Assembly: GCA_028716565.1 (NCBI GenBank)
Contig: JAQUPL010000001.1
Coordinates: 211,545 to 275,544 of the forward strand
Length of the DNA stretch: 64,000 nucleotides
Origin: Candidatus Omnitrophota bacterium
Lineage (GTDB): Bacteria > Omnitrophota > Gorgyraeia > Pluralincolimonadales > Pluralincolimonadaceae
Direction of reading: 5' to 3'
The notes below the pieces were generated by a model. The model did not search any database. It saw only the letters and a program-made list of their open reading frames with translations, and was not told the DNA's origin. The translations under genes and the position numbers were made by a program. Numbering within the stretch: the first letter of the stretch is position 1; each line of letters starts with the position of its first letter. Below are positions 27,479-64,000 of the stretch, in pieces.

Positions 27479-30232
27479 TCAGAACTTTACTTCAAGTTCC
27501 TTTGTGTCCGCGGGAACGCTGATCCTGTTCTTGCCGAGCGTCAGGATATACCCACCCGGAGGCGGCGTCGCGCAATCGGTAGACAGCTTGACAAAGCCCT
27601 TGGCTCGCGAGCTTTCTACTTTGAAAGATACCTTGCCAAAATACGTCGGGGCATCCTTTATCTCTATGACCTTGCCGTCATCGAGCCACGAGTCCGGGAT
27701 GCAGGACAAAAGCACCAGCTTATCGCCGTCCTCGCGAAAAAGCATGTCGCGCAGCAGTAAAATATAATGCGCGGCCGACCAGCCGTGCGGGACGTCGCCT
27801 ACTATCCCTTCGGTGATCTCCCTCAATCCTTTAGAGTTGACCTTGGTCGGCATCGCCTCCATCCATCCGCCGGGGCAGGATTGGTGCTCTATACCCCACT
27901 CGATGCTCTTAAGCGCGACGTCTTCCATTCCAATATATATAAGGGGATGCGCGAGCTTGAAATTATATCCCCAGAAGAGCTGCTCGTATTCAACGAACCA
28001 CCCGCCGTCATAGTCCGAGAACTTCCCGGCGTTCTTCCAATATTGCTCATATGAAGTCTTGAACAGCTCCGCAGGTACCGGGATGCCCATATTCTCTCCC
28101 GGGAATAATGCCGGCCTGTGCGCCCACGCCATCTGCGTATCGCCCAGTATGCGGTGATCCATGTCCTTTATGCGCATCTCTTTGGGCCAGTAATCGGCGA
28201 ACCCGGGCATGAACGACAGCCCGTTCTTCTTCATCGATTTTTCGATGCTCGCGATAGTGGCGGAATGGAGGCTTCCGTATTCGGCTTTCATCCATTTGGC
28301 GTCATCCGGTTTTCCGAGTATCTGCGCCGACTCGTAAGCCGCCTTAAGGCCTATCATCGCCCACCAGTCATCTACGTAAAGGTAGGCAGGTATCTTGAAA
28401 TTGTCCTGGCTCACCCCCTTAGGAAGGAGCCCGTAAGCCACGTCTTCCTTCGGCAGTGACATCTGCGGGGCCCGGACCTTCCTTATGAGTTCGCACGCCG
28501 ACTTCATCCTGGGATATGCGGCCTCCAGGTATTTAACGTCCTTTGTCAGCCGGTAATGCTCGTAAGGCGCGAAGATGCTGCCGCCGAGCTCGTCTACGTA
28601 GCCGCCGCCTTCCTTGTAATTGAAGTGTTCGGTTGAGGCGCGCGCCTCTTCGGTAAGCCCTGCCTTGTCGAGCGCGTTGTCCATATCTATCGCGTCATGC
28701 ATGAAGAACGATGTATATTCATACGGGCCCGGGAAAAGTTTATGTTCCTCGTCCATTATCAGGATGTAATAGAGAGATGAATAAAAACAATCACTGTAGC
28801 GCTTATCCGGGATATTCATTACGAGCGGGATGCGGCCTTTCCAGTATTTGAACGTCAGCGCGAGCGCTTCGTCGAAACCTTTATCCTTGATGTCGTTAAA
28901 TGACAACTCCGCTCCTGTGCCTGATGGTACGATAAAATCAAGGGATTCTGTAGTACCGGCAGGTATCTTTTTCCTGTAAGATAGCGAATCCCTCAGGTCT
29001 TTGCCTAGAGGGCCTTCCGCCCTTTCGTCAAGGAAGAGCCGCGGCGCGCCGTTTATCTTTACGGTATGGTCGGCGTCGTATTCGATCGTCTTCATATCCG
29101 TAACTTTCCATTTAGGGTAAAGCGGGTTCGGCCGGATGACTGCCATTATCAACACTTCTTTATCCCGGGCGCTTGTATTTTTGACAGATTCCCTGGCAAA
29201 GGTCAGGACTTTGCCTGCTTTTTCATCGAACCAGGAGAATATCTTCGTCTCGCCTTCGATACCGTTGCCTTTCCACGATACCACCGTCACAGGATACCCG
29301 CCGTCGACCAATTTCCAATCGGTATGGAGCGTTTCCGGGGTATAGAGCCGGTCGTCATCGTTTACCCAGAAACTGACCCTGAACGGGTAAGGATAGACGG
29401 CAAAAGAACCGTCCTTTCCGATGAAAGTCTTGAATTTGGAACCCTCCCACCCGGCGAGGCCGCGGGCCTTGTTCAGGCCTTTGTGTTTGGCGATATCGTC
29501 CCAGTCCTTGAATTCGATCTTCTTCATCACGCTTTCCTTCCCTTTGTTGTCTTCACAGTTGATCTTTATGTGGCGTTTCCCGAATATGTTAGCATATATC
29601 CTGTCCTGTCCGCCAGTGCAAACCTCTTTATTATAGACGGTCTTCCGGCGGTTATCCTCTTCGATCTCCACGCGGTACGATCTTGGGAAGTCCTCCCCCC
29701 ATGTTATAAATAAAGCGCCGATATTCCTGTCCTTCTTGAGCTCTATCGAGATCGTAGTCCTGCCGTTATCGCTCGAGGTCTTTATCGGTATCTCGTCATC
29801 GAGCCCTTTGATCCTGATCTCCCAGATCGAATATCCCCACGCCGTGCCGCGCTCCTTTAAGTCCAGTTTTATGAATCGCGCCTTCTTCCTCCCGAAATAT
29901 ACGTCGTCGACTACCCCTTCGCCTTCGGACGTGGAATAGGCGTTCTCCCAATTTTTCCCGTCCTCTGATATGAGTACGTCGTAGGATCTCGCGTAAGCGG
30001 CCTCCCAGTTTATGATCAGGCCGACCAGGTCCTCGGTCCTCCCGAGGTCTATCTGGAGCCATTGCCTGTCGGAGAACCCGCTCGACCATCTCGACTGCAG
30101 GTTATTGTCGAACGCGTAAGAGGGCCCGGTGGAATCGTTTTCGGATGATGACGCATTCACCGTTGCGGCGTTTGAAAGATGGGCTATCGCCAAAAATATG
30201 CAAAGGATCATTGCGGTCTTTATCTTTTTCAT
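27479..30232 (-). CDS. secreted protein with two N-terminal F5/8 type C (discoidin) domains and a large C-terminal domain, possibly a carbohydrate-active enzyme
   Basis: 917 aa with a signal peptide ([22 protein letters not shown]). Two discoidin-like modules (..QWLQIDLG...[25 protein letters not shown].. and ..[24 protein letters not shown]..) precede ~600 aa of unassigned, possibly (alpha/alpha)6-like, sequence. Confidence 0.55.
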
Positions 30233-48056: not shown

Positions 48057-49141
48057 TTCTTAAGGTCCTTGTCCGATTTCATGAGCCCGACAAGCCTCTT
48101 GACGTCCTGCGCCCTGTCGCGGCTGCAGACGAGCACGCAGTCGCCGTCGCGGACCACTATAATATCGGATACGCCTATTGTCCCGATTATGCCCTGCGAG
48201 GATACTATCACCGAATTTTTAGTGTCTATCTCCTTGTGGGACCCGATCGTGAAATTGCCGTCCTTGTCTGTCGTGAGATGGCGCGCGAGCGAATCCCAGG
48301 AGCCGAGGTCGTCCCAGTAGAACTTCCCTTCGACCGCGAATATCCTCTTCTCTTTTTCAAGGACGCCGTAGTCTATCGAGATCTCCTCGAGGTTGGGATA
48401 GACGCTGTTAAGTTTCCCGTAAAAGCTGAAATGGCCGATGCTCGGTTCCAATAGCTGCAGTCCGAGATACAGCCTCGGCAGGTTCTCCTTTATCGCGTCG
48501 AGGATGCTCGTCGCTTTCCATATGAACATGCCGCTGTTCCAATAATACCTCTTCTCCTTCAGGAATTTCATCGCGTTCCGGAGGCTGGGTTTTTCGACGA
48601 ACGCCATTACCCTGTGGACCTTCGCCTTCAGGCCCGGGCCTTTTATCCTGAACTGGCCGCTTGTGTCTATCCTCAGGTAGCCGTATCCTGTCGCCGGGAA
48701 AGTAGGTTTTACGCCGATCGTCACAAGGCCGTTAGATGCCTCGGCGACCTTCACTCCGGTCAAAAGCGCGTCTATGAATTTATCCTTATCCTTTATGAGG
48801 TGGTCCGAAGGCAGGACGATCATCGTCGCCTGGGGATCAAGTTTCTTAATTATCATCGCGGCGAGCCCGCATGCCGCCGCGGTATTTTTCGCGGCCGGCT
48901 CGGCGATTATGTTCTTTATGGACGGCAGGTCGGCTTTTATCGAGCCCAATTGCTCCTTGTTCGTTATGACGTATATCCTCTCATTGGGCACTATGGACCC
49001 TATCCTGTCTACAGTCTCCTGGATAAGGGAACGCCTGCCCATGAGCTTAAGCGTCTGCTTCGGGGTCTTTGCCCTGCTCTTAGGCCAGAACCTCTCTCCT
49101 CTTCCGCCGGCGATAATTACCGCATAGATATTTTTATTAAT
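48047..49141 (-). CDS. manC: mannose-1-phosphate guanylyltransferase (nucleotidyltransferase-only form); proposed non-canonical ATT start at 49141
   Basis: The six-frame ORF begins at the internal Met at 49042. The 33 codons immediately upstream and in frame encode the family's N-terminal motif (NKNIYAVIIAGGRGERFWPKSRAKTPKQTLKL). There is no ATG/GTG/TTG between the in-frame TAG (49156..49154) and that Met. ATT at 49141..49139 is preceded by GGAGG at a 6-nt spacing and overlaps the trpA stop (ATTAA). Confidence 0.75.
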   Translation of the reverse strand: MNKNIYAVIIAGGRGERFWPKSRAKTPKQTLKLMGRRSLIQETVDRIGSIVPNERIYVITNKEQLGSIKADLPSIKNIIAEPAAKNTAAACGLAAMIIKKLDPQATMIVLPSDHLIKDKDKFIDALLTGVKVAEASNGLVTIGVKPTFPATGYGYLRIDTSGQFRIKGPGLKAKVHRVMAFVEKPSLRNAMKFLKEKRYYWNSGMFIWKATSILDAIKENLPRLYLGLQLLEPSIGHFSFYGKLNSVYPNLEEISIDYGVLEKEKRIFAVEGKFYWDDLGSWDSLARHLTTDKDGNFTIGSHKEIDTKNSVIVSSQGIIGTIGVSDIIVVRDGDCVLVCSRDRAQDVKRLVGLMKSDKDLKKCL

Positions 49142-49931
49142 GGGAGGCCTCCGCTAATTTTTGGACGTAGTCGCCTACGCGTATTATGAAATCCTTGCGT
49201 TTAGAGTCCTTCTCTATCTCTTTAACGATCGCCGAGCCGACGATGACGCCGTCGGCGACCCTGGCTATCTCGCGGACCTGCCCAGGCCTGGAGACGCCGA
49301 ACCCGACGCAGACAGGTTTATCCGAATACCTTTTTATCAGGCGGACGCGGGATGCGAGCTCTTTCGGGAGGTTCGCCCGCGCGCCGGTGATACCGGTGAG
49401 TGAGACGTAATAAATGAAACCTTTCGATCCCTTCGAGACTAGCCTGATCCTGTCGGGCGTGCTCGTCGGGCTTAATAAAAATATCGTGGCGAAATCCCTC
49501 TTCTTGGCTTCAGCTACCAGGTCTTCCGCCTCATCCGGCGGCAGGTCCGGGATGATGACACCGTCGACGCCGTTTCCCGAGCAATCCGAGACGAATTTCT
49601 TCAATCCGTATTTCAGGACCGGGTTATAGTATCCCATGAGGATTACAGGTATCTCCGTGGAGTTCCTTAACCCTTTGACGAGCTTGATTATATCTTTTAG
49701 CTTTGTGCCGCGTTTCAGGGCGCGCTCGGACGAGGCTTGTATAACCTGGCCGTCGGCGACCGGGTCGGAGAAAGGCACGCCGAGCTCTATGATGTCGACC
49801 CCGCGCTTATCGAATTCAAGCACGAGTTTTTTCGTAGTCGAAAGGCCGAAATCCCCGGCCGTAAAGAACGCGACCAGCGCCTTTTGCTTTTTCTTTCTAA
49901 GTTCCCTGAATTTTTTATCTATTCTGTTCAC
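49137..49931 (-). CDS. trpA: tryptophan synthase alpha chain
   Basis: 264 aa; VAFFTAGDFG...ELGVPFSDPVADGQVIQ. Confidence 0.94.
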   Translation of the reverse strand: MNRIDKKFRELRKKKQKALVAFFTAGDFGLSTTKKLVLEFDKRGVDIIELGVPFSDPVADGQVIQASSERALKRGTKLKDIIKLVKGLRNSTEIPVILMGYYNPVLKYGLKKFVSDCSGNGVDGVIIPDLPPDEAEDLVAEAKKRDFATIFLLSPTSTPDRIRLVSKGSKGFIYYVSLTGITGARANLPKELASRVRLIKRYSDKPVCVGFGVSRPGQVREIARVADGVIVGSAIVKEIEKDSKRKDFIIRVGDYVQKLAEASH

Positions 49932-49989
49932 CCCGCAACCTCTCTATTATTCAAAATTTATTCTCCCGCACTTTATATGAATGCGGGGT

Positions 49990-51180
<1,191 letters not shown>

Positions 51181-51215
51181 GTCATAACCCCTTTATTTTA
51201 AGTAAGTAAACTTAA

Positions 51216-51244
51216 ATATTAGCACAGAGTCCAAGAGTAGTCAA
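51216..51244 (-). promoter_or_regulatory. putative sigma-70 promoter for trpBA (-35 TTGACT, 17-nt spacer, -10 TAATAT)
   Basis: Minus-strand TTGACT at 51244..51239 and TAATAT at 51221..51216. Confidence 0.45.
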
Positions 51245-51263
51245 TTTATAATTAGGGCGGGAC

Positions 51264-51578
51264 CTACTTTGATTTGAGGTTTTTGTCGAGGATCTCTATC
51301 CGCGAATCGGCCTTTTTCTTGTGCTGCAGCGCGAGGCGTTCTTCTATAACAAGGTCAAGCTGTTCTTTCAGCGTATTAGGAGTGATCTTTAATGAAGGAT
51401 TTTCACTGATGCGCAGCGCGAGAGCCATCTTCAGGTCTTTATTGGTAATAGGCTCGCCGTTGACCGTCGCTATGACTTTTTCGACCGGCTGGACGGCAGC
51501 CGGTTTTTCAGCCGGCCTGCCGCAGCCTAACAATAAGAAAGTAGCTAAAAGTAAGAGTATTTTTTTCATTAAATTCAT
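51264..51578 (-). CDS. small lipoprotein with a SurA N-terminal-like chaperone domain
   Basis: 104 aa; lipobox LLGC. VIATVNGEPITNKDLKMALALRI...LKEQLDLVIEERLALQ resembles the SurA_N / PpiD N-terminal helical chaperone module (compare the SurA motif pattern AAVVNNGVVL..L...IMERLIMDQIILQ). Start overlaps the stop of the giant gene by 4 bp. Confidence 0.6.
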   Translation of the reverse strand: MNLMKKILLLLATFLLLGCGRPAEKPAAVQPVEKVIATVNGEPITNKDLKMALALRISENPSLKITPNTLKEQLDLVIEERLALQHKKKADSRIEILDKNLKSK

Positions 51579-54500
51579 GGTGTTAAAACTCCGGCTACCA
51601 CTTCATCAAGTATATACGAGGTTCCATCGTAAGTTATTGAACCGGCGGCTTGACCTGTGGCCGTTGAGCCATTTATCTGACCAAGGATATCTGCAGTATA
51701 TGTGGTTTCAGTTATGTTGGTATATGTATGGTTGAGATAATCGGAAAGGTTAGAAATAGTATCTATCTCTCCTATGACAGGAAGTGCCGACCGAATTAGC
51801 TGACCATAACCGACAAATATTCCAGTATCATATACGCTTAAATCAATACTGCCAGCAATCAAGTTGGCATTTCCGGATACGTCGGTAAGTAATGCGGTAT
51901 AGGTTTCGGTTATCGGGACCTGGACCATATCGGCTAACGCGACTTGGTCAAAACCTAGCGCGCTTGTCGCGATCTCGGCCAAGTCTACCCAATCGCCCTC
52001 CACTTTGGCGTTCCAGGTCGTATCTACATTAGTAATGTCGGAGATGGTGCCGTCTACCATGCCTACCCATAACGTATCTTCTCCCTCCGTGTGCATCCCG
52101 AAAGAAACGCCGTGGAAACCATTTGAGCTCGCGGTCCCAAGTAAATATCCATCGACCACGCCGTCATCATAAGACTTGATGCCTAATGCCAGCCGCCAGT
52201 TTGAATTCTCCTCTATATTTCCTGTGCCTGCCAGCATACCACTGTATGTACCCGTATCAGGCATGCCTTCGGGGATCCCCAGGTTTGTAACCGCTTCTCC
52301 TCCGAACAGGCCGGCCATAAGGACGCCGTTAATATTGCCCCATCCGCTCCCTGCGACATCGATCTCGTTTGTTATTATATGTTCCTCTTTCAGATCGATT
52401 ATCTGTTCATATCTTCCGATGGCGAGCGCCTCCCATCCATCGGTGTCATTATATACGCCGGCGATATTTCCGGATATCTCGCCTAACCTGGTGCCGTAGA
52501 GAGTGACGCCGTTCATCGTCGCCAGGAATCCGTTGTCCGTCCATTCCGACCCTGATATCACAGCGACCCAGGGGCTGCGCCCGTAGATCCTGTCGCCTTC
52601 ACCGGCCAAGACCGAATTCCACGCGCCGGTTGGCAGAGACGCGTAGGCACCGCCCGCCGACGCGCGCCACAGACCCCAGTTTTGGTCACGAAGCTGAATA
52701 TGTTCGCCGCTGACAAAGCCGCTGACGTTGCCGTTTATAACGGCGTCTAAATCGCCGTATTCAAATACTACGTCTATATCATCATTCATCACGTCCATTA
52801 AAAAGAGCTCAGGCGATATATCAGTCTGCTGGCCGGGATAAGCGGTCATATTTCCGTAAGCGTCAAACATGCTTATCGACGGATAGAAAGCGCCGTTGAC
52901 GTAGGCGGGATTACCTGTCCCGTCGGAAGATAACACATACCCGGCGAGATAATCGTCATCGCCGTCGGCGTCAAGATCGCCGGCATTACGGACATAAATG
53001 GCTGCCAGCATGCCTTTAAGCGAGTTATTTAATGTTGTGCCTCCCACAGAACCGTATAGCACAGAGTTCCCGTTGGTGACCGCAACAAAATCCGAACCCC
53101 AGAGATTGTAGTAACCCGCGCCGTCTTCATTGATATCCGGATTATCGTAATTGCCGAGTATCGTGAACTCCGGCGAATTATCCCAGAGCACCCCAGTACT
53201 GCCTAGGACGCCGTTGACATATCCGTAATCGAGCATATCGTAATCGCCGAAATATCCGTCGATCATCATTCCGCCGGTCACAAGCGGTTTCTCCACCCAC
53301 CCGCCTATAGCCGAAAGGGCGAACGTCGAATACCCCTCGCGGTCGTTATATATGCCGCGGGCGTCTCCGAATATCGTCGACATCACGTTTCTTTCAAGGT
53401 CTATGGCGGTGCCGAATACGTCGCCCACTATCTTGTTACCGGAAACGCTGCTGTTCGAGATAGTGACGAGCTCATAATAGTTGTAGTAAGGTTCGTCACC
53501 GTCGTAATAGCCAAGCACAACCGCGCCTTCTTTTGCGTTCCCTTCATACCACGGTTCTCCCCATTCTCCGGCGAGGGTGATGTTGAACAGGCCCCACGGG
53601 TTATTCGCGATATAGTATGAACTTTCGCTCGCTGAGCCATAAACTAAATTAATGCCGTCGAACGATCCTCCGACCATATATTCCGCGTGATAGCCGTCTT
53701 CGGCAAATCTTTCGAAGAGGTCTTCAGGAGAGACTACGGTGCCGCCCATCGCCTGCCGGTATAGCGCGCCTTCAGCCTGCCACATCTCTATTTCATCGTT
53801 GTACCTTCCGTTGATATCGCCGTGAAGCAGGCCGACAGCCCCGTTCGCCGCATAAATGGCCCACATGCTGCCGTCGGACATTGATCCGTCCTTCCAGATG
53901 CCGGCGGAGAAGCCTTTAAAAGCGCCGCCGTCGAGAGTAGTCGAATTATCCAGTTCGGCATTATAGCTTTCTATGGGAGTGTTCCACAACAACGGGTTTT
54001 CTTCCGCGTAATTGTAGAATTTACCCATCGCCAATACCGGGAATGAAGCCTCATTCCACCACTGCTCGACTGTCGAGCCGATCAACCCCCATTCCTCGCC
54101 CGCTTTATCTATATAGCCGTAATTGTCATAGTATAAGCTGCGGACCTCATAACCCCACAGGCCGCTTAGGGTAAGCCGTCCGCCGTTCCAGACACCGGCA
54201 CCGACTCCCAGCCAGTCGCCCTCGCCTTCCCCTTCATATATTCCGAGTATCTTGCCGTCAATATTGCCCATCTTTGTATAGGTGATGAATTTCCCGTGCA
54301 GTTCGGCATCCACATCTTCTATGTAGTCGGATACCTCATCCCACGTCCCGGTCAAATCGGCCATCCAGTATCCGTAATCGTCGTTGAGGTAACCTTCACC
54401 TTCTCCGTCTCCATATTTAAAATAATAGGCGCCGAACGGATCATCCCCGCCCATAACGCCGGACCACGTAGTTTCGGATCCGGGGTCATCGTTTTCAAAC

Positions 54501-57376
54501 CAGCCGGTGATCGTCTGCCCGTAGACGCCCCAGTTCTGCGCTATTCCGCGTTCGTGATCGACTATCGATAATGTCCGGAAGTCATCTTGACCGTATATGT
54601 ATCCGCCCGTCGTTAAGGTGCCGGAAAGATAACCGTACCCTTCGGTATTCCATATGGGGAGCTCTTCCGCGGGGATGCCCAATTCCCCGGCCGAGACCAT
54701 TTGGGTCTTTGTCATCTCTCCCTGCAGGAGGTACATCCCGATATCCGTCGAATACGCGCCCTTCAGGTCGCCTGACATCACTCCGGCATTGCCGGCCGGG
54801 TCTATATACAACAGCCTCGCAAGTCCGAGTAATTTTGCATCCTGTCCGTCGCCGGCTGTGAAGCCGAAAAACGCGCCGCCGTCATATGTAGTATATGGTC
54901 TGGTTTCATCGCGCGGATTATCGCTGCCCATATTCTCAAACCAGATAAACGGTTCGTAAAATTCTCCCTCATAGCCTTCGCCGTACTCAGGGTTGACGTC
55001 CGGTTCCACGTACCCTATGGAAGTGACATTGAAGGATCCCGCGCCCCAGAGGTCTCCGGTAGTGCCGAATAATCCGCGGAAATCGCCGTCATGGAAGTAA
55101 TCGCCGTAATTATAAGTATATAAACATATGTCAAAGTCTCCGCTGGAGGTCAGGGGTTCTTCTCTGAAGCCGCCCAGCCCTATCCCTTCGAAACCTTCTC
55201 CCTCAATGTTGCCCAGTATCGTACCGTAGTATGTACCTAACTTATCGTAATCAAGGTAGGTTCTGAGTATGTCTATTCTTACGGCGCCCGAGCCATCGTC
55301 AACGCCCTCAAGCGAGACGAAAAATCTTCCGCCGGCATCACCGTAGTACCCGCCTGCCGCTCCGAGCCAATTATTCAGGTTATGCGAGTTAGAATATCCG
55401 CCGTTATATACGTCTCTCCATATACCCCAGTTCTCTCCGGCGATCGTTTTTATGTCCTCGTCGAAGACGACGTCGAACTGACCGCTGCCATTACCGAAAT
55501 AGGCGTTCAACCAGCCGTTGCCGGTACCGTCCTCCCACCCGTATTCCTTGCCGGGCTCAAGCTGGGCCATGGGTATTGTATAGAGGTCCCCGGTGCCGCT
55601 CAAAGTGCCTGCCCCGGCTAGCGAGACGCTATTCGTACCGGAAAAATATCCGAAAAGGTTACCCGCTAAACCGGAAGGATCTATATATATAGAAGATACA
55701 ACGCCTTCCCAACTGTGCCAGCTTCCTCCGGCCCAGCCCGTAAAAGCTCCGCCGTCTGTGCTGGTGCCGTACACTTCTCCGTGCCAGAGGCTGTAGCCGG
55801 GATTTTCATATGAACCGGCAGCGTTAGTGGAGAAGATCCCTGACCATGGGACGGCAAGGGCTGTCGTGTTTGAAAGGTCTATCTCGATACTATTAGGACC
55901 TTCTAGCCCCTCATCGGGCCCGAAAGCGCCTTCGATCCTTCCTGAAAGATAAACGGGTAAAGTCGCAGAGCCGCCGCCTTCGCCGCCGGTCGTACCGCCG
56001 CCCACTCCCGTATTGTCGGTAAATATCTTGTCGCTGAAAGGATTCTGGTTCCAGTTGGTGTCGGGGTTATCACCTGTACCTCCTCCAGTACCTTCAGAAT
56101 ATCCCTCAGGGGCGGAATAACCTTCAGCCCCTCCTTCGACATCCCATCCCTGGTTCCATTGTGAACGTTGCTCATCGGTGACATGGATCGGGTTCGATAC
56201 ATTACCGTTCCCGTCGGCGCCGGATGAGGTTCCAGCTGCCACATTTTGGATGATTCCGGATATCATGCTTTTCAAGACACCGTTACCGTCTTCGAAATAT
56301 GCGCTTGTAAGATTAGGCAGGATGTTAAGGAAAAGGATCGTGCCGCGGACGGAAGCGACGGCTGTCGGGGTCTTGACTTCAAATTTGGAATTGCCTTTAA
56401 GTTTCTCTACTTTGGCGCGGAGTTTGCCCTTCTTCGACTCAAAGAGGCTCTCATGCTCTCCGCTCCCGGTCTCCTTGAGGCGTGTTATAGTGAAATTCGA
56501 GTCCTGTTGTAAAGTGATGACATCACCGTTCTCGACCCTGAATTCCACTTTTCCGTTCTTGTTCGTCTCTATTGTATCGCCGCCTCTGAGGGTCTCGTTC
56601 ACTTTAGCGTCGTGCCATACGGCCGAGCCGCCGTTCTTGACTTTAACGCTTCCGGAGAGTTTGACGATGACCGCCTTCATCTCGCCGGGTTCGCTGTAAC
56701 CCTCGGCCGCCGCGGATTCCCCGGCAGGGGCTTTCGCTATCAGAGTATCTTTTTCGTGCGCGGTTCTCTCCATGGCAAGGATCGTCCTGGGAGAGGTAGG
56801 CCCGCTGTCCGCGAGTATTACCGATGACTCCCCGCTCTTTATCTCGACCTTCTTTTCGGGAGCGGCGGAGCTTGAGAATGACAAGCTGCCGTTCAGGACC
56901 GTCGCCGAGGTCGCCGATTTCTGGTAGGCCACTACGACATCGGTCCCTTTTATGCTTCCGGAGGCGTTAGGGGTATTGATGAGGAAATTATCTTTGCCCG
57001 GAGCTTTGGAGACAACCGCTCTTATCTTCCCGCGTTCTATGTTCAAAACGGCCGCTATACGTTTTCCGTCGAGGCCTACCCTGTAATCCTTGATCTCAAG
57101 CCTGGTTTTTTCCGAGAGGGTGACGACAGACTTGTCAGAGAACGTTAACTCCGCCTTAGAGATGCTCTTCGTTCTCAGGATGTCTCCCGCAGATACATCC
57201 TCTCCGCCTTTTACCGGCACCGCTTCGGTCCTACCCGGGCTAAGCAGGTCTACATTACCCTCGGCGGCGGATACCCTGCCTATCACTTCGGCGCTCGCCG
57301 TGACGGCGAAAGCAAGGGACGCCGCGGTAAGTATAAATACTCCCGCCGTTAATAGTTTTGCGGTCCGGCTTTTCAT
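51575..57376 (-). CDS. giant secreted protein (1933 aa): signal peptide, two tandem FecR domains, ~1500 aa repetitive Gly/Tyr/Asp/Asn/Trp-rich region
   Basis: SPI signal peptide (..LAFAVTASA) with no lipobox. FecR domain 1 (GDILRTKSISKAELTFSDKSVVTLSEKTRLEI...FLINTPNASGSIKGTDVVV) and domain 2 (GDTIETNKNGKVEFRVENGDVITLQQDSNFTI...FEVKTPTAVASVRGTILFL). The remainder has almost no Lys or Arg and shows a recurring motif h-x-G-[DN]-h-x-G-x-Y-[NS]-[DT] (LHGDINGRYNDE, MSGDLKGAYSTD, FGDARGIYNDRE, SGNIAGVYNDTD). Confidence 0.85.
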   Translation of the reverse strand: MKSRTAKLLTAGVFILTAASLAFAVTASAEVIGRVSAAEGNVDLLSPGRTEAVPVKGGEDVSAGDILRTKSISKAELTFSDKSVVTLSEKTRLEIKDYRVGLDGKRIAAVLNIERGKIRAVVSKAPGKDNFLINTPNASGSIKGTDVVVAYQKSATSATVLNGSLSFSSSAAPEKKVEIKSGESSVILADSGPTSPRTILAMERTAHEKDTLIAKAPAGESAAAEGYSEPGEMKAVIVKLSGSVKVKNGGSAVWHDAKVNETLRGGDTIETNKNGKVEFRVENGDVITLQQDSNFTITRLKETGSGEHESLFESKKGKLRAKVEKLKGNSKFEVKTPTAVASVRGTILFLNILPNLTSAYFEDGNGVLKSMISGIIQNVAAGTSSGADGNGNVSNPIHVTDEQRSQWNQGWDVEGGAEGYSAPEGYSEGTGGGTGDNPDTNWNQNPFSDKIFTDNTGVGGGTTGGEGGGSATLPVYLSGRIEGAFGPDEGLEGPNSIEIDLSNTTALAVPWSGIFSTNAAGSYENPGYSLWHGEVYGTSTDGGAFTGWAGGSWHSWEGVVSSIYIDPSGLAGNLFGYFSGTNSVSLAGAGTLSGTGDLYTIPMAQLEPGKEYGWEDGTGNGWLNAYFGNGSGQFDVVFDEDIKTIAGENWGIWRDVYNGGYSNSHNLNNWLGAAGGYYGDAGGRFFVSLEGVDDGSGAVRIDILRTYLDYDKLGTYYGTILGNIEGEGFEGIGLGGFREEPLTSSGDFDICLYTYNYGDYFHDGDFRGLFGTTGDLWGAGSFNVTSIGYVEPDVNPEYGEGYEGEFYEPFIWFENMGSDNPRDETRPYTTYDGGAFFGFTAGDGQDAKLLGLARLLYIDPAGNAGVMSGDLKGAYSTDIGMYLLQGEMTKTQMVSAGELGIPAEELPIWNTEGYGYLSGTLTTGGYIYGQDDFRTLSIVDHERGIAQNWGVYGQTITGWFENDDPGSETTWSGVMGGDDPFGAYYFKYGDGEGEGYLNDDYGYWMADLTGTWDEVSDYIEDVDAELHGKFITYTKMGNIDGKILGIYEGEGEGDWLGVGAGVWNGGRLTLSGLWGYEVRSLYYDNYGYIDKAGEEWGLIGSTVEQWWNEASFPVLAMGKFYNYAEENPLLWNTPIESYNAELDNSTTLDGGAFKGFSAGIWKDGSMSDGSMWAIYAANGAVGLLHGDINGRYNDEIEMWQAEGALYRQAMGGTVVSPEDLFERFAEDGYHAEYMVGGSFDGINLVYGSASESSYYIANNPWGLFNITLAGEWGEPWYEGNAKEGAVVLGYYDGDEPYYNYYELVTISNSSVSGNKIVGDVFGTAIDLERNVMSTIFGDARGIYNDREGYSTFALSAIGGWVEKPLVTGGMMIDGYFGDYDMLDYGYVNGVLGSTGVLWDNSPEFTILGNYDNPDINEDGAGYYNLWGSDFVAVTNGNSVLYGSVGGTTLNNSLKGMLAAIYVRNAGDLDADGDDDYLAGYVLSSDGTGNPAYVNGAFYPSISMFDAYGNMTAYPGQQTDISPELFLMDVMNDDIDVVFEYGDLDAVINGNVSGFVSGEHIQLRDQNWGLWRASAGGAYASLPTGAWNSVLAGEGDRIYGRSPWVAVISGSEWTDNGFLATMNGVTLYGTRLGEISGNIAGVYNDTDGWEALAIGRYEQIIDLKEEHIITNEIDVAGSGWGNINGVLMAGLFGGEAVTNLGIPEGMPDTGTYSGMLAGTGNIEENSNWRLALGIKSYDDGVVDGYLLGTASSNGFHGVSFGMHTEGEDTLWVGMVDGTISDITNVDTTWNAKVEGDWVDLAEIATSALGFDQVALADMVQVPITETYTALLTDVSGNANLIAGSIDLSVYDTGIFVGYGQLIRSALPVIGEIDTISNLSDYLNHTYTNITETTYTADILGQINGSTATGQAAGSITYDGTSYILDEVVAGVLTP

Positions 57377-57394
57377 CTTACATATCTCCTCATT

Positions 57395-58897
57395 TTAGAA
57401 TTTGTATTGTATCCCTAAACCGTAAATGCTTCTGTCGTAATCGTAGACCGCTATATTCGAATGGTCCTTCACGTAGGTGTACCTGAACTGCAGCTCCGCT
57501 TCCTTCCAGAAGTTATACGCGAGCATGGAAGAGACCGTATAGACCTGGTCATCCCGCTTTTTCCCGAATATTGTGTTCGTATCGGCGAAGTCCTGGAGGA
57601 AAGCGTCGCCTGCGATGCTTAGCTTAAATTTTTTAAAGAAAGGATAGAGGATCGTCGCGGTGAACCTGTTGCCGAGATAGTTCCAGTTCACGCCTTGTGT
57701 ATATTCCCTATTCAGCCCGTAATGGAGCCCGAAGAAACCTTTATTCTCCGCGAAGAAGAAAAAGTAACCCAGGCCACCGCCGAAATCATTCGAGTTCCTG
57801 TTCTCGTCGGGTATGAAGGGGTCGCGGGCAAAAGCCTTCTTCTGATACTTAAAATTAGCCTGAAGCATGTGCCTTCCGCCGATTATGTAATTGACAACGG
57901 GGCTGGCGCTGACCGTCGTCATATATTTGGTCCTTCCTACATCGGTATAGTTATATCCCGCGGCGATGCCCAAAGTCCCATTCTTGAAATAATAATTCGG
58001 CGTTACCACGACGGTCTGGCTCAGGACATCGTAAATGCCGAGGTCATTCTGGTGCGCGAAGTACAGGGAATACTGGCCGTCGAGTCCCAGCTTATCATTT
58101 AACTTCAGCCTGCCCTGGCCCATGAAGTTCACGACTTCCCTCCAGTCAGCCTCATCGCTGATGCCGGTCGCGACAGTATCGTCGCCGGGCTTAAGCAGGA
58201 CGTTCGTGTCGTATTCCCCTCCGATGCTGACAGTCGCCCTTAGGGGCCTCTCAGCCTCCTCTTTTCTCTTAAGGGCCTCCATATATTCGCTGGAAAATGA
58301 CGCGAGGTCGGAGTTGGGGTCGAGGATTATTATCTCGTGAAATACCTTTTTAGCCTCGGCGAACCTCTTCTCCTTTAGGTGCGCGATGCCTATCTGGTAA
58401 TCGGCGGCCCGGGCGAGCGTCGGGTCGATAGCTTTTGCGTTCTCGAAGGCTGTTATCGAGTCCATATTTTCGCCGGCCTTCAAGAGCACAAGGCCTTTCA
58501 GGAAAGCTGTCTGCGAGGGCTTGATATTTTCCTTTTCCGCCGTCGCTATATAAGACTTCGCCTCGTTTGTCTCTCCCAGTTGATAGAGCACTTCAACAAG
58601 CTCGACAAGCGCTTCCTTGATCTTCGGCGTAAGCGTAACCGCGTCGGTTAACTGTTCTTTCGCGAGCTTATAGTCCTGCAGCTGCTTATAAGTTATACCG
58701 AGGTAATAGGCGGCCAGGCACGAATTCGGGTCCTCCTGCCTTGCCTTCTTAAGGAGAACGACCGCTTCATCGAAGTTCTCTCTTTTATACTGACTCATGC
58801 CTTGCTCAAGAGACGTATCAGCGGTTGCGGTATTGAAGATAAAAAAAGAAGATATAAAGACGGAAAATATCATTACCAGGAGGGCTTTTTGCGGCAT
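57395..58897 (-). CDS. outer-membrane protein: N-terminal periplasmic TPR domain + C-terminal beta-barrel (Slam / type 11 secretion-like architecture)
   Basis: 500 aa with a signal peptide. It has 4-5 TPR-like repeats (residues ~30-200), then ~14 amphipathic beta-strands ending in a C-terminal aromatic (..GLGIQYKF). Size and layout match Slam (DUF560) translocons. It is 18 bp upstream of the giant gene. Confidence 0.6.
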   Translation of the reverse strand: MPQKALLVMIFSVFISSFFIFNTATADTSLEQGMSQYKRENFDEAVVLLKKARQEDPNSCLAAYYLGITYKQLQDYKLAKEQLTDAVTLTPKIKEALVELVEVLYQLGETNEAKSYIATAEKENIKPSQTAFLKGLVLLKAGENMDSITAFENAKAIDPTLARAADYQIGIAHLKEKRFAEAKKVFHEIIILDPNSDLASFSSEYMEALKRKEEAERPLRATVSIGGEYDTNVLLKPGDDTVATGISDEADWREVVNFMGQGRLKLNDKLGLDGQYSLYFAHQNDLGIYDVLSQTVVVTPNYYFKNGTLGIAAGYNYTDVGRTKYMTTVSASPVVNYIIGGRHMLQANFKYQKKAFARDPFIPDENRNSNDFGGGLGYFFFFAENKGFFGLHYGLNREYTQGVNWNYLGNRFTATILYPFFKKFKLSIAGDAFLQDFADTNTIFGKKRDDQVYTVSSMLAYNFWKEAELQFRYTYVKDHSNIAVYDYDRSIYGLGIQYKF

Positions 58898-58969
58898 TTA
58901 TGCTCTTCCTTTTGTTTTACTAGATTTGTTTTTAAAGATATAATACGAAGTATGCCGTAAGATGAAATA

Positions 58970-58998
58970 ACTCTATCATTTCCTTATAATTATGTCAA
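58970..58998 (-). promoter_or_regulatory. putative sigma-70 promoter of the OMP / giant / lipoprotein operon (-35 TTGACA, 17-nt spacer, -10 TAGAGT)
   Basis: Minus-strand TTGACA at 58998..58993 (inside the palindrome) and a weak -10 TAGAGT at 58975..58970. Confidence 0.4.
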
Positions 58999-59016
58999 GA
59001 TAAATATCTTGACATA
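58991..59016. promoter_or_regulatory. perfect 12-2-12 palindrome (candidate operator) in the divergent intergenic region
   Basis: TATGTCAAGATA-AA-TATCTTGACATA. Each arm contains TTGACA, serving as the -35 for the + strand (59009-59014) and the - strand (58998..58993) promoters. Confidence 0.7.
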
Positions 59017-59037
59017 AGGCGCCAAATCGCATATTAT
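59009..59037 (+). promoter_or_regulatory. sigma-70 promoter of the PEP-CTERM protein gene (-35 TTGACA, 17-nt spacer, -10 TATTAT)
   Basis: TTGACA at 59009-59014, a 17-nt spacer, and TATTAT at 59032-59037, 45 nt upstream of the ATG at 59083. Confidence 0.6.
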
Positions 59038-59082
59038 ACTACAAGCGACCAAAATCTAACCGTTGAATCCAAGGGGCTTTAT

Positions 59083-59598
59083 ATGAAAAAACTATCCATT
59101 ATTTTGCTGGTGGTAGCTTTTCTCTCCGTTGCTCACTCTGCATTTCCCGATACTTTCGATACTTTACAGGGTATTGTTTTTTATCCATTTTCCACCGCAG
59201 AACATTATACAGAGATCCATAATTTCGATCTTGGGCAAACCCCCTATCTATATTTAGAGCTTCCGTCGGGAAATTACGGTTTTTATACGTCCTCTATTGA
59301 AACTAACTGGTATCACGGTGACTCAGATGAAGGCGGCTATACTGCATTAGGTATAGAACGACTTGTCTACAATAATAATCCGACCCCGACCTTATCCCGG
59401 GACTGGAGCAACCCGTCTAATATCGGCACCTGGTATATCTCTGCGAATTGCACTATTGTTGGTACTTCGTATTTAACCGGACAAGCCAACACCTGGTTCA
59501 CAATCAGCGACCCGAATGCTGTCCCGGAACCCGTCAGCACTATCCTGTTTTTGGCAGGCGGGGCGACACTCGCGGTAAGACGCCTGCGTAAAAAGTAA
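59083..59598 (+). CDS. PEP-CTERM sorting-signal protein (putative exosortase substrate), secreted
   Basis: 171 aa; N-terminal signal peptide and a C-terminal VPEPVSTILFLAGGATLAVRRLRKK (PEP motif, TM helix, basic tail). The gene is visibly lower-GC than its surroundings and is the only plus-strand gene in the window. Confidence 0.8.
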   Translation: MKKLSIILLVVAFLSVAHSAFPDTFDTLQGIVFYPFSTAEHYTEIHNFDLGQTPYLYLELPSGNYGFYTSSIETNWYHGDSDEGGYTALGIERLVYNNNPTPTLSRDWSNPSNIGTWYISANCTIVGTSYLTGQANTWFTISDPNAVPEPVSTILFLAGGATLAVRRLRKK

Positions 59599-59605
59599 TT
59601 CCCTT

Positions 59606-61516
59606 CTATTCTATTTTCAATATAATCACCGTCATGTCGTCGTGTTGGGGCGTGCCTTGGCTGAATTTCTCGACTTCCCCTACCAGCTTATCGGCCAGGC
59701 CCTGGGCCGAAAGCCGCCTGTTCAATAATGCCGTATCGAGTATTTGTTTCTCGCCGAATTCTCTCTTGTTCTTGTCCCTCGCCTCTGATATGCCGTCCGT
59801 ATACATCACGAATACGTCTCCCGGTGAAACATCGAACTCATCGGCCGTAAACTCCGAGCCGGGGATTATACCTATGGGGCTTCCGACCGATTGCGTCAGC
59901 GCCACCACGTCCCCGGAATCTTTCACCCAGACGAGCGGGTTATGGCCGCCGTTCGAATATTTTATCTTCCTCTCCTTGGGTTTGTAGATGAGGTACTGGA
60001 GGGTGACGAACATCCCGGAGACCCCTTCTTCAACGAGCCTGTCATTTATCGCGGTAAGGGCTTCATCCGGTTCGTTGAAGTCATGGGAAAGACCGCGGAA
60101 ATCCGCCATCGCCTTCGCCATGAACAGGGCTGCCGGGACGCCTTTGCCTGAGACATCTCCGATGACGATCCCCAGCCTGTCTTCCTTCAATTTGACGACA
60201 TCGTAAAACAATTTTATGAAATCGTAAAAATCCCCTCCGACATGTTTTGCCGGAACGAACTTGACCCCTAATTCGACGCCTTTAGTCCCCGGAAGGTTTT
60301 GGGGCAATAGCGACTGCTGTATCCGGCTTGCTATCTGGAGCTCTTTTTCTATAAGGCCCTTCTCGAACCTCGTTATAATGAACTGGTTAAGTGTCACGGC
60401 AGGATACGCGACGCACAGCAATATCAGTATGCTTACATAATCCAACCATATATTAAAAAAAGAAAATGAAATATACGATATAGCCGATATTCCTGCTGCC
60501 AGGACCGCGAAAAAAGCCAGACCCTCGAACGGGGTCCTTTTCGGGAGAGTAAGACCGATGGCTGAGCCGATAATAAGGAGTATAAGTAATATTCCCGGCC
60601 TGTATACCCGATCGATGAAATCCTTTTTAAGGATCGTGTTAATCGCGCTTGCCCTTATGCCTACGCCCGGGTATAAGCTGGACATCGGAGTAGACCAAAA
60701 GTCCTCGCTTCCGGTCGCGGTCAACCCTATGATGACGATCTTGTCCTTCAGCATCTTAAGGTCTATGGCAGGTTTTTCGCCGTCCTGCGCCTGTACGCCG
60801 GCCAATGCCACGGCCGCGTAAGATGCCCTTTTAAATTTGGCGTATTCTCCGGGATAATTTATCCACATCATCCTGTTCGCGTCAGTCCTGACATTGAGTT
60901 TCTCGGGTGTTGTGCCTAAAAAATGCGCGGCCACGAGCGCGTCCAAGGATAAGTATTTTTTTCCTTCATGGGTGAGCTCTACCGGAACCTTCCTGACTTT
61001 CCCGTCCGGCTCTACTAGGATGTTCACGAAACCTACGCCTTTGGCGTTCCGCTGCAGTTCCGGCAACGGCAGGGTAATATCCCTGGGCTTGATGATGTTC
61101 TTCCTCATGTCGTCCTGGCCGAGGTCGAAAAAAGCCGAATAGAATATGTTGCCGGTTATCTTGGTCTGTTTAGATAGTTTTATGTCTTCCTCTGGCTTAT
61201 CCTCCTCCGGTTCGCTGAAGATGATATCGAAGACTATGGTCTTGGGGCCGTAATCATCTATGATATCCAGCAATTCTGCGTGATATCCCCTGTCCCACGG
61301 CCACCTGCCGAAGGCCTTAAGGGCCGCGTCGTCTATCTCTATGATGACTATATCGGGACTTGCCGGCCGCGGGCCGCGCATCTTGAAAAGTAAGTCAAGC
61401 CCCTGGTATTCAGCGAGCTCAAGGATGCCTGTCAGGTAGGCAAAGCCTATGACCGCCGCGCAAATTAGCCCTATTAAAAGCCCGCTTTTCTTTTTCATTC
61501 TATTATTATCTCGCAT
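59606..61516 (-). CDS. CHASE2 sensor domain-containing PP2C/SpoIIE-family serine phosphatase
   Basis: 636 aa; TM helix, periplasmic CHASE2-like region (..IVIIEIDDAALKAFGRWPWDRGYHAELL..), three TM helices, then a PP2C domain (GDVSGKGVPAALFMA...MYTDGISEARD). Confidence 0.75.
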   Translation of the reverse strand: MRDNNRMKKKSGLLIGLICAAVIGFAYLTGILELAEYQGLDLLFKMRGPRPASPDIVIIEIDDAALKAFGRWPWDRGYHAELLDIIDDYGPKTIVFDIIFSEPEEDKPEEDIKLSKQTKITGNIFYSAFFDLGQDDMRKNIIKPRDITLPLPELQRNAKGVGFVNILVEPDGKVRKVPVELTHEGKKYLSLDALVAAHFLGTTPEKLNVRTDANRMMWINYPGEYAKFKRASYAAVALAGVQAQDGEKPAIDLKMLKDKIVIIGLTATGSEDFWSTPMSSLYPGVGIRASAINTILKKDFIDRVYRPGILLILLIIGSAIGLTLPKRTPFEGLAFFAVLAAGISAISYISFSFFNIWLDYVSILILLCVAYPAVTLNQFIITRFEKGLIEKELQIASRIQQSLLPQNLPGTKGVELGVKFVPAKHVGGDFYDFIKLFYDVVKLKEDRLGIVIGDVSGKGVPAALFMAKAMADFRGLSHDFNEPDEALTAINDRLVEEGVSGMFVTLQYLIYKPKERKIKYSNGGHNPLVWVKDSGDVVALTQSVGSPIGIIPGSEFTADEFDVSPGDVFVMYTDGISEARDKNKREFGEKQILDTALLNRRLSAQGLADKLVGEVEKFSQGTPQHDDMTVIILKIE

Positions 61517-63492: not shown

Positions 63493-64000
63493 CTATCTCG
63501 GGCTTATTGCAAGTTCCTCCAGCCGCGCGATCCTGCGTTCGATAGGAGGATGCGTGCTGAAGAGGTTAGTGAAGCCGCCGCCTGTAAGCGGATTGACGAT
63601 AAATAAATGCGCGGTCGTCGGGTTCGCCTGCATCGGTACCTGGCGGGAGTAATTATAAAGCTTCCTTAACGCGTTCGCCAGCGATAAGGGCCTTCCGCTC
63701 AATTTGGCGCCGGATTCATCGGCCATATACTCCCTCGAACGGGAGATCGCCAATTGTATGAGCGTCGCGACGATGGGAGCGAGAATGGCTATTATCAACA
63801 GGGCGAGCGGGTTTCCGCCTTCCCTGTCGTTATTCCTTCCGCCGATACCTCCGAATATTGCCGCCCATCTCGCTATATTTGAAAGCATGTATATCGCGCC
63901 GGCGACTGTGGCGACTACGGTCATGATCAGGGTATCCCTGTTATGGACGTGGGAAAGCTCGTGGGAGATGACGCCTTCGAGTTCGTCGTCGCTTAATAAA
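63493..64000 (-). CDS. htpX: protease HtpX (M48 family), partial - N-terminus beyond window end
   Basis: The minus strand encodes ..[15 protein letters not shown]...[15 protein letters not shown] with HExxH at the window edge. The gene is truncated by the window. Confidence 0.85.

Follow-up and report, generated by a model that had tools for sequence, protein, structure and literature searches.

A TPR-barrel outer-membrane protein and its FecR-domain neighbour in Omnitrophota: a candidate divergent type 11-like secretion module with a recurrent CHASE2 link

What do an outer-membrane barrel protein, a giant secreted protein and a small lipoprotein do together when their genes form a single operon? 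The question is raised by a 64,000-nt stretch of a Candidatus Omnitrophota metagenome-assembled genome (MAG), positions 211,545–275,544 of the forward strand of contig JAQUPL010000001.1 (GCA_028716565.1), which we call the window and number from its first letter. Three co-directional genes on its minus strand encode a 500-aa outer-membrane protein (OMP, 57395..58897), a 1933-aa protein with FecR domains (51575..57376) and a 104-aa lipoprotein (51264..51578). The original prediction had read this layout correctly: the open reading frame (ORF) coordinates agree with its 18-bp gap between the OMP and giant genes and its 4-bp overlap between the giant and small lipoprotein genes, and a scan of the window found no minus-strand terminator-like site inside the operon. 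The genes are real, since the giant protein has a 100% identical NCBI entry, a 'FecR family protein' of a Candidatus Omnitrophica MAG, and the small ORF is kept at the same position in five species-level relatives of the window clade. That earlier account took the three genes for a Slam-type translocon with its giant cargo and a dedicated chaperone; its observation was confirmed, but its interpretation is supported only in part. We find that the conserved unit is the pair of OMP and FecR genes, and we favour, at an even chance, the reading that this module comprises a divergent type 11-like (Slam/DUF560-family) OMP and its cognate substrate. Together with a CHASE2 sensor gene that often lies beside it, the pair suggests a surface-display system, not described before, that may also signal.

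Type 11 secretion systems have a DUF560 OMP with a 14-strand barrel and a tetratricopeptide repeat (TPR) domain, and an adjacent gene for a cargo protein that is targeted for secretion by an eight-stranded barrel at its C-terminus (PMC8406197, PMC12282271). How closely does the window OMP resemble this? Read from the sequence, it starts with a signal peptidase I (SPase I)-type signal (..ATA|D, aa 1–26) and ends in ..YKF. The Pfam families TPR_1, TPR_2 and their relatives match aa 30–200. An AlphaFold2 model built with 72 homologues, at a predicted local distance difference test (pLDDT) score of 90, shows 12 helices forming six TPR-like pairs (aa 29–215), followed by 14 β strands (aa 219–499). 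The signal peptide, the 14-strand barrel and the terminal ..YKF had all been anticipated correctly; the four to five TPRs had not, as the model has six helix pairs. The periplasmic TPR domain (58253..58813, minus strand) is the most conserved part of the protein, with 66 of its 187 positions at least 90% conserved among the 72 homologues. In the barrel (57401..58243, minus strand), the invariant residues Y229, D230, N232, D251, R253, E365, R367, W405, R448, D450, Y485, Y487 and R489 are placed at the outer strand ends and in loops. Among solved barrels in the PDB, those nearest to the model are CymA and OmpG, each with 14 strands, and not PelB and BcsC, which have 16. The strand count proposed as a check came out at the value expected for Slam. 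No Slam structure was among the PDB fold matches of the model.

The case for a Slam relationship comes from the family. Homologues of the window OMP number in the hundreds, are about 500 aa long and come mostly from Omnitrophota. The OMP of one locus, L080 from a Desulfobacterota MAG, is 36% identical to the window OMP over aa 4–500, and a precomputed match to PF04575 (SlipAM, the Slam barrel, DUF560; gathering cutoff 22 bits) is present in about 99 of the 120 relatives that match it best. When PF04575 was scanned directly, the L080 OMP and the proteins P0142, P0146, P0150, P0174, P0205, P0213 and P0227 scored 27.9–36.7 bits, and the whole profile (positions 1–288) aligned to the barrel in seven of these eight. 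Two Omnitrophota members, P0033 and P0067, also pass, at 34.1 and 25.5 bits. Because full-length homologues (36–55% identity) exceed the PF04575 cutoff, the OMP family appears, on profile evidence, to be a divergent branch of the Slam/DUF560 (type 11 secretion) family. The window OMP, which has no PF04575 score of its own, would belong to this branch by transitive homology. The Slam-type assignment of the original prediction therefore holds for the family but not by a direct match of the window protein.

We then asked what accompanies this OMP, using five annotated contigs and 80 species-level genome loci from Omnitrophota, Nitrospirota and Desulfobacterota/Thermodesulfobacteriota MAGs. A FecR gene lies no more than 2.5 kb downstream of the OMP gene in 62 of the 66 loci with enough sequence, and three of the four misses are due to overlapping starts. 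By clustering, a gene for a FecR-domain protein with a signal peptide follows the OMP in 71 of 80 loci, in agreement with the earlier claim that the putative cargo is encoded next to the OMP: it is a near-obligate downstream neighbour. The other companions vary. A SurA_N-type lipoprotein occurs in 27 of the 80 loci, and a CHASE2 gene flanks the pair, on either side, in 23. A membrane protein of about 190 aa with a HAMP domain only (TM-HAMP, for its transmembrane and HAMP parts) is found in 23, and 22 have a signal-peptide protein of about 165 aa with the metalloprotease-like motif HEMAHAV (HExxH), which belongs to no Pfam or NCBIfam family. Examples of the last two are at L006 16132–17196, L007 13882–14969 and L073 16406–17633. 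The conserved unit is the OMP-FecR pair, often joined by CHASE2, a full-length peptidyl-prolyl isomerase (PPIase) lipoprotein, TM-HAMP and HExxH proteins, and not the triad that had been proposed; the TM-HAMP and HExxH proteins of other lineages had gone unnoticed.

The partner in the window has an SPase I-type, non-lipidated signal (..ASA|E), read from the sequence. Two FecR β-sandwich domains follow (aa 66–164 and ~235–365; 56282..57181, minus strand; Pfam FecR 90 bits in two stretches). NCBIfam matches to this region include Lsa33 and LipL45, as well as the LapA retention module (NF033682; 35.1 bits, E 1.3e-8, two stretches, cutoff 50). Each FecR domain holds a Gly-Thr dipeptide, K143-G144-T145 (56939–56947) and R344-G345-T346 (56339–56347), the latter invariant in 17 homologues. 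The FoxR anti-sigma factor cleaves itself at the corresponding Gly-Thr position (PMC11637429), and by analogy autoproteolysis of the giant protein is possible. A low-complexity linker of about 80 aa, rich in Gly, Ser, Thr and Glu (aa ~400–480; 55937..56179, minus strand), was read from the sequence and leads into four divergent repeats of about 300 aa each (aa ~480–1700; 52277..55939, minus strand), recognised by composition and motif spacing as acidic, rich in Gly, Tyr and Trp and poor in Lys and Arg. The repeat units are seen only through the spacing of the motifs GGAF, YIDPxG and NWG[ILV][WYF]; a self-BLAST of the protein showed no internal repeats at E 1e-3. Past aa 400 there are 1–10 Lys and Arg and 24–33 Asp and Glu per 200 aa, and the entire 1933-aa protein contains a single Cys. 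Sequence and Pfam results thus agree with what had been said of this protein: a Sec signal, no lipidation, two FecR domains and an acidic, Lys/Arg-poor remainder. A PDB sequence search with it returned nothing at E ≤ 1.

At the other end lies a conserved C-terminal domain (aa 1775–1933; 51578..52054, minus strand) defined with a hidden Markov model (HMM). An AlphaFold2 model of aa 1400–1933 is all-β, with a pLDDT of 72 overall and above 90 for the last ~105 aa; the repeat part (aa 1400–1700) is modelled as all-β with low to moderate confidence, and the last ~110 aa as eight antiparallel strands. Eight strands, as in the signature that was to be looked for at this C-terminus, are thus modelled, but without a counterpart of known structure: Foldseek against the PDB gave no match at E ≤ 1e-3, with TM-scores of 0.18 or lower. 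The partner has no sequence match to TbpBBD either, and the likeness of its modelled C-terminal domain to the type 11 cargo domain is weak.

How general is this architecture? We surveyed the C-terminal domain with an HMM of the last 160 aa of the giant protein, followed by iterative searching. Complete partners range from 257 to 2643 aa across loci. The ~160-aa domain sits at the extreme C-terminus of 43 of the 51 complete partners of at least 380 aa; among the eight without a match, four are assembly artefacts and three still end in ..GTW. The middle repeats partially match the same HMM, and the number of repeat units varies from none to many among homologues. Minimal partners of 413–443 aa consist of a FecR domain and the C-terminal domain. 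The constant parts are therefore the N-terminal FecR domain and, in partners of about 400 aa or more, the C-terminal ~160-aa domain, and giant size, presented earlier as a feature of the system, is not among them, as partners down to 413 aa keep the same two ends. Two assemblies of the same locus differ in how they render the giant gene, as one 2201-aa ORF or as three ORFs (L002 11536–18143 vs. L001 11536–18141), and several further loci have split partners or runs of N. Repeat-rich partners are prone to assembly and frameshift artefacts, so counts of partner length need care.

The third gene of the operon encodes a protein with the lipobox LLGC (C19) and about 85 mature residues. It matches Pfam SurA_N_3 at 19.1 bits, below the cutoff of 27.2, and has neither a PPIase domain nor a C-terminal helix. 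It is 36–46% identical to the N-termini of syntenic lipoproteins of 182–268 aa. The L007 member, 40% identical over the shared part, reaches 27.8 bits for SurA_N_3 and 25.6 bits for Rotamase_2 (cutoff 27), and the best NCBIfam match of these relatives is an EpsD-family PPIase (8e-11, 42 bits vs. a cutoff of 109). The form of about 100 aa is restricted to the window clade. Judged by these alignments, the small lipoprotein is probably a truncated member of the SurA_N/EpsD-like PPIase family and a putative chaperone. The SurA_N resemblance noted earlier is borne out by homology to the longer lipoproteins; what had been called a mini-chaperone is a shortened form found in one clade.

Directly upstream of the module, just beyond a divergent PEP-CTERM gene, lies the gene of a 636-aa CHASE2-SpoIIE (PP2C) membrane sensor phosphatase (59606..61516, minus strand; Pfam CHASE2 184 bits, SpoIIE 174 bits). 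It occupies the same position in the relatives L001, L006 and L009–L014. Across loci the output domain is mostly a PP2C phosphatase, and a class III cyclase (Guanylate_cyc) in L061, L063 and L080. These CHASE2-cyclase genes are in Desulfobacterota MAGs (L061 6960–9188, L063 12811–14832, L080 12359–14317), with partners of 257–945 aa there. The adjacency of CHASE2-PP2C points to a signalling link that the original prediction missed. TM-HAMP, HExxH, RsbW-like and STAS companion genes were not found in the 64-kb window.

From the family membership of the OMP and the near-obligate pairing, we infer that the FecR partner is the cargo of the OMP, and its modelled architecture would fit the logic of type 11 cargo. 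In such a scheme, Sec would export the giant protein, and the lipoprotein and the OMP's TPR domain would hold it unfolded, or escort it, in the periplasm. As with known type 11 cargo, recognition would go through its C-terminal eight-strand domain, and its acidic, nearly Cys-free, Lys/Arg-poor repeats would be moved through or alongside the 14-strand barrel to the surface. The FecR domain or domains would be the functional 'head', connecting the system with the CHASE2-PP2C sensor encoded next to it.

Several observations weigh against this scheme. The usual place of action of FecR domains is the periplasm. On its extracellular side the OMP has short loops (59 aa over seven loops) that are as conserved as the strands, which would suit a barrel that is closed or filled by a partner, rather than a translocon. 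The window OMP has no PF04575 match among the 22 families found at E ≤ 0.01 or among the best 25 at E ≤ 1, and its barrel matches are all sub-threshold (BBP2_2 21.5 bits, cutoff 23.7; DUF2860 19.6 bits, cutoff 22.9). The TPR_Slam model stays below its cutoff in all scanned members (16–28 bits vs. 35.2). A short class of partners (254–310 aa) lacks the C-terminal domain. Neither the window nor the annotated related loci contain genes for TonB or TonB-dependent receptors, and every family member comes from a MAG. Lastly, the recurrent CHASE2 neighbour fits signalling at least as well as secretion.

This last point leads to the alternative that nothing is secreted, and that the TPR-barrel OMP and a periplasmic FecR protein form the input of the CHASE2 inner-membrane sensor, whose output would be a PP2C partner-switching phosphatase here and a class III cyclase elsewhere. 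On this view the long C-terminal region would serve in the periplasm, as a scaffold or as an array that binds ligands, and the module would have its analogues in FecA-FecR cell-surface signalling or in the S. meliloti outer-membrane barrel NsrA, which feeds CHASE2 cyclases. We regard such trans-envelope signalling as the main rival, but as rather unlikely. In its favour, the CHASE2-SpoIIE gene is directly upstream in the window, CHASE2 accompanies the pair on one side or the other in 23 of 80 loci, and where the output swaps to Guanylate_cyc (L061, L063, L080) the OMP and FecR genes stay. Genes for RsbW-like kinases and STAS proteins are nearby in L006 and in L022, L023, L031 and L051, conservation is strongest in the FecR N-terminus and the TPR domain, and the 254–310-aa partners have little beyond a FecR domain. 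There are precedents both for FecR-CHASE2 adjacency (PMC5192318, PMC5498481) and for an outer-membrane barrel needed in CHASE2 cyclase signalling (PMC7529298, PMC13001267). However, 16 of the 26 loci with full flanks have no CHASE2 within the 10-kb flanks, the barrel family meets the Slam model, and the S. meliloti FecR protein SMc02177 is not needed for signal perception (PMC5498481). Signalling on its own also leaves unexplained why a β domain is kept at the extreme C-terminus and why the middle array is variable, acidic and nearly Cys-free, as is typical of exported proteins. It is not exclusive of the secretion reading. The sub-threshold LapA match, the ~80-aa Gly-rich linker and the invariant Arg-Gly-Thr are the reason why the two could be combined, with the protein threaded through the barrel and its FecR domains reporting to CHASE2. 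In the version of this that we consider, unlikely in our estimate, the module is a sensor spanning the outer membrane: the barrel surfaces the C-terminal domain and the repeats, and the FecR region is a periplasmic stopper held by the TPR domain and in contact with CHASE2. If the surface array were bound or pulled, as it might be when a host or prey cell is touched, the event might then be relayed across the outer membrane to a partner-switching or cyclic nucleotide pathway, and self-cleavage at Gly345-Thr346, or the HExxH protease in other lineages, might reset or release the protein.

An outer-membrane tether is a further alternative, and we find it distinctly improbable. Here the FecR domains would fold in the periplasm as a LapA-like stopper, with the protein threaded through the barrel, its repeats outside, and the small HExxH protease and TM-HAMP protein of other lineages controlling release. 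LapA is anchored inside an outer-membrane pore by its N-terminal module (bioRxiv 10.1101/198937), and the window protein offers parallels in its retention-module match on the FecR region (E 1.3e-8, 35 bits), the Gly-rich linker of about 80 aa that follows, which by inference only may be the segment crossing the barrel, and the short, conserved barrel loops; TM-HAMP and signal-peptide HExxH genes are on hand in 23 and 22 of the 80 loci. Yet the retention-module score is under its cutoff of 50, the HAMP and HExxH genes are absent from the window, LapA needs a TolC-type pore and a type 1 system, neither of which is present here, and the topology is pure inference. Another idea is that the module is an accessory of exosortase/PEP-CTERM sorting or of exopolysaccharide export. 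The OMP would then be a porin of the EpsL/BBP2_2 type whose TPR domain is PrsT-like, the lipoprotein would be a PPIase of the EpsD type, and the actual clients would be PEP-CTERM or CFI-box-CTERM surface proteins, or a polymer. The best NCBIfam matches are indeed PrsT for the TPR domain (58 bits vs. 312) and EpsL for the barrel (E 0.004), the lipoprotein relatives match EpsD (42 bits vs. 109), and BBP2_2 is the commonest barrel match among the Omnitrophota homologues of the OMP (61 of 72). In the window clade a PEP-CTERM gene shares the divergent promoter, 7 of the 80 loci have homologues of it beside the module, the L007 cluster includes a PEP-CTERM S8 peptidase, and Nitrospirota loci have choice-of-anchor L/CFI-box-CTERM genes. 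But every one of these family matches is under its curated cutoff, the barrel has 14 strands and not 16–18, and PEP-CTERM neighbours are occasional, whereas the FecR partner is nearly always there. The 64-kb window and the inspected related loci contain no gene for an exosortase, a glycosyltransferase, Wza/Wzc or polysaccharide synthase or export; the original prediction had stated as much for polysaccharide synthase and export genes near the operon. A role in exosortase sorting or polysaccharide export is unlikely, and we give this accessory reading very little weight. The related candidate of a polysaccharide porin of the BcsC/PgaA/PelB kind (16 strands, a long TPR array, synthase genes) was rejected on strand count, family scores and gene context.

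If the secretion reading is true, type 11 secretion extends to Omnitrophota, Nitrospirota and Desulfobacterota, with a new class of cargo, in which a FecR domain at the N-terminus is combined with a variable array of repeats and a conserved β domain at the C-terminus, and with a cargo size pushed towards 200–280 kDa. It offers a hypothesis for the role of secreted FecR-domain proteins outside the anti-sigma context, and another for what feeds signals to CHASE2 receptors. Omnitrophota are very small bacteria thought to depend on other cells, and for them a large, sensor-coupled protein on the surface would be a candidate means of sensing contact. The minimal partners of 413–443 aa, from Desulfobacterota MAGs, make the idea testable in E. 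coli.

The region between the operon and its divergent neighbour holds a perfect 13-nt inverted repeat, found by repeat search (TTATGTCAAGATA at 58990–59002 and TATCTTGACATAA at 59005–59017). Within it are two back-to-back TTGACA −35 boxes, one for the operon on the minus strand and one for the PEP-CTERM gene on the plus strand. A consensus scan (10 of 12 matches) placed a TTGACA-17-TAGAGT element with an upstream TG at 58970..58998 on the minus strand, and this site is predicted to act as the operon promoter. Its −35 box and extended −10 are conserved among relatives, and both TTGACA boxes are invariant in five relatives, in which the inner palindrome varies. A promoter-like site in a perfect palindrome, as proposed earlier, is therefore present here, but the inner part of the palindrome is not conserved; since relatives keep the two −35 boxes without the inner arms, a reading of the palindrome as an operator is weakly supported. 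In the 5' untranslated region (UTR) of the OMP gene, CTTTAAAAAC (58928–58937, minus strand) and an ACTTC slightly upstream are invariant in six relatives, and their surroundings vary. An Rfam scan of 50900–59700 returned nothing at E ≤ 1; the stretch conserved in the 5' UTR therefore belongs to no known RNA family.

The divergent gene (59083..59598, plus strand) encodes a 171-aa secreted protein that matches NCBIfam PEP_CTERM at 20.8 bits (cutoff 16). It and trpB had been named correctly as flanks, but the upstream side is not only housekeeping, because the CHASE2-SpoIIE gene at 59606..61516 (minus strand) had been overlooked; the remainder of the 64-kb window consists of housekeeping genes. 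The order in the window clade is trpEGDCF, PilZ, M48, helicase, CHASE2/PP2C, PEP-CTERM, OMP, FecR, small lipoprotein, trpB and trpA, and the module therefore lies within a split trp cluster. A 70%-identical relative (L001 1–21518) shows the full split-trp order, with a DinG-like helicase; the window covers its right-hand part (49137–51180 and 63493–63999 on the two sides of the module) and ends in the M48 gene. Long family-matched ORFs of the window (1–64000) are nearly all on the minus strand; near the module, only the PEP-CTERM gene is clearly on the plus strand. Elsewhere, between uvrB and nadC, a 917-aa protein (27479–30232, minus strand) has an N-terminal F5/8 type C (discoidin, sugar-binding) domain and no further Pfam match; it may be another large surface protein. 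In the Nitrospirota loci L067 (13840–15411) and L073 (13856–15466) a secreted protein carries a choice-of-anchor L domain and a CFI-box-CTERM signal, and the same loci have a LuxR-type regulator and a small ORF between the OMP gene and a short (~300 aa) FecR gene.

Our final question was how the module compares with systems already described. Public annotation calls its proteins 'tetratricopeptide repeat protein' and 'FecR family protein'; our literature search found no paper describing the gene cluster and none linking FecR with Omnitrophota or type 11 secretion, and the type 11 literature makes no mention of FecR, CHASE2, Omnitrophota, Nitrospirota or Desulfobacterota. The FecA-FecR-FecI system shares with the module a FecR (PF04773) domain, an outer-membrane barrel, a link to a cytoplasmic-membrane signalling protein and the Gly-Thr dipeptide at the FoxR self-cleavage position (PMC11637429). 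It differs in that the partner here has a cleavable signal peptide in place of an N-terminal anti-sigma domain and transmembrane helix, the barrel is a 14-strand TPR barrel, the inner-membrane part is a CHASE2-PP2C or CHASE2-cyclase protein, and no extracytoplasmic function (ECF) sigma factor or TonB-dependent transducer with a signalling domain is nearby. FecR-CHASE2 adjacency is known from a Burkholderia operon of a LysM-FecR protein and a CHASE2 histidine kinase and from S. meliloti CyaD1 and SMc02177 (PMC5192318, PMC5498481), and in S. meliloti the outer-membrane barrel NsrA is needed to relay an external signal to CHASE2 cyclases (PMC7529298, PMC13001267). As in the module, a gene for a secreted FecR-domain protein is paired there with one for a CHASE2 receptor. 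In contrast, those FecR proteins are small and have no neighbouring TPR/14-strand Slam-like OMP, and NsrA is much larger than the window OMP, with its barrel portion at aa 600–1200 (PMC7529298). Among the PPIases of the SurA/PpiD/PrsA/EpsD kind, the likeness lies in the SurA_N helices of the syntenic longer lipoproteins, with which the small lipoprotein aligns; it differs in having about 85 mature residues, no PPIase domain and a sub-cutoff Pfam score.

The giant adhesins of the LapA/LapE type are likewise large, acidic and repeat-rich, have an N-terminal β domain of which the FecR region is a sub-threshold likeness, and are encoded beside an outer-membrane pore gene. LapA is, however, a substrate of type 1 secretion (ATP-binding cassette (ABC) transporter, membrane fusion protein (MFP) and TolC), with C-terminal RTX repeats and no Sec signal peptide, and LapG, LapD and ABC/MFP/TolC genes were not found near the module. 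The closest comparison is with the type 11 systems, such as Neisseria Slam1/2 and Xenorhabdus HrpB/NilB. In these too, a single OMP combines a periplasmic TPR domain at its N-terminus with a barrel of 14 strands, PF04575 is passed over the whole barrel by members of the window family, and a Sec-dependent partner gene adjoins the OMP gene, its product combining a variable N-terminal and middle part with a conserved C-terminal β domain that is modelled with eight strands. Descriptions and tests of type 11 secretion are confined to Proteobacteria, and the known cargo is lipoproteins or small hemophores tied to metal uptake (PMC8406197, PMC12282271). Unlike these, the module comes from Omnitrophota, Nitrospirota and Desulfobacterota MAGs, the window OMP is too diverged to match PF04575, and the partner is a non-lipoprotein with FecR domains, up to about 200–280 kDa and without a TbpBBD match. 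The TonB and TonB-dependent receptor genes typical of cluster 1 systems are missing, and CHASE2, PPIase lipoprotein, TM-HAMP and HExxH genes stand as neighbours instead. What is new here is a divergent Slam-like OMP family outside Proteobacteria, a predicted new class of cargo and a recurrent link to CHASE2.

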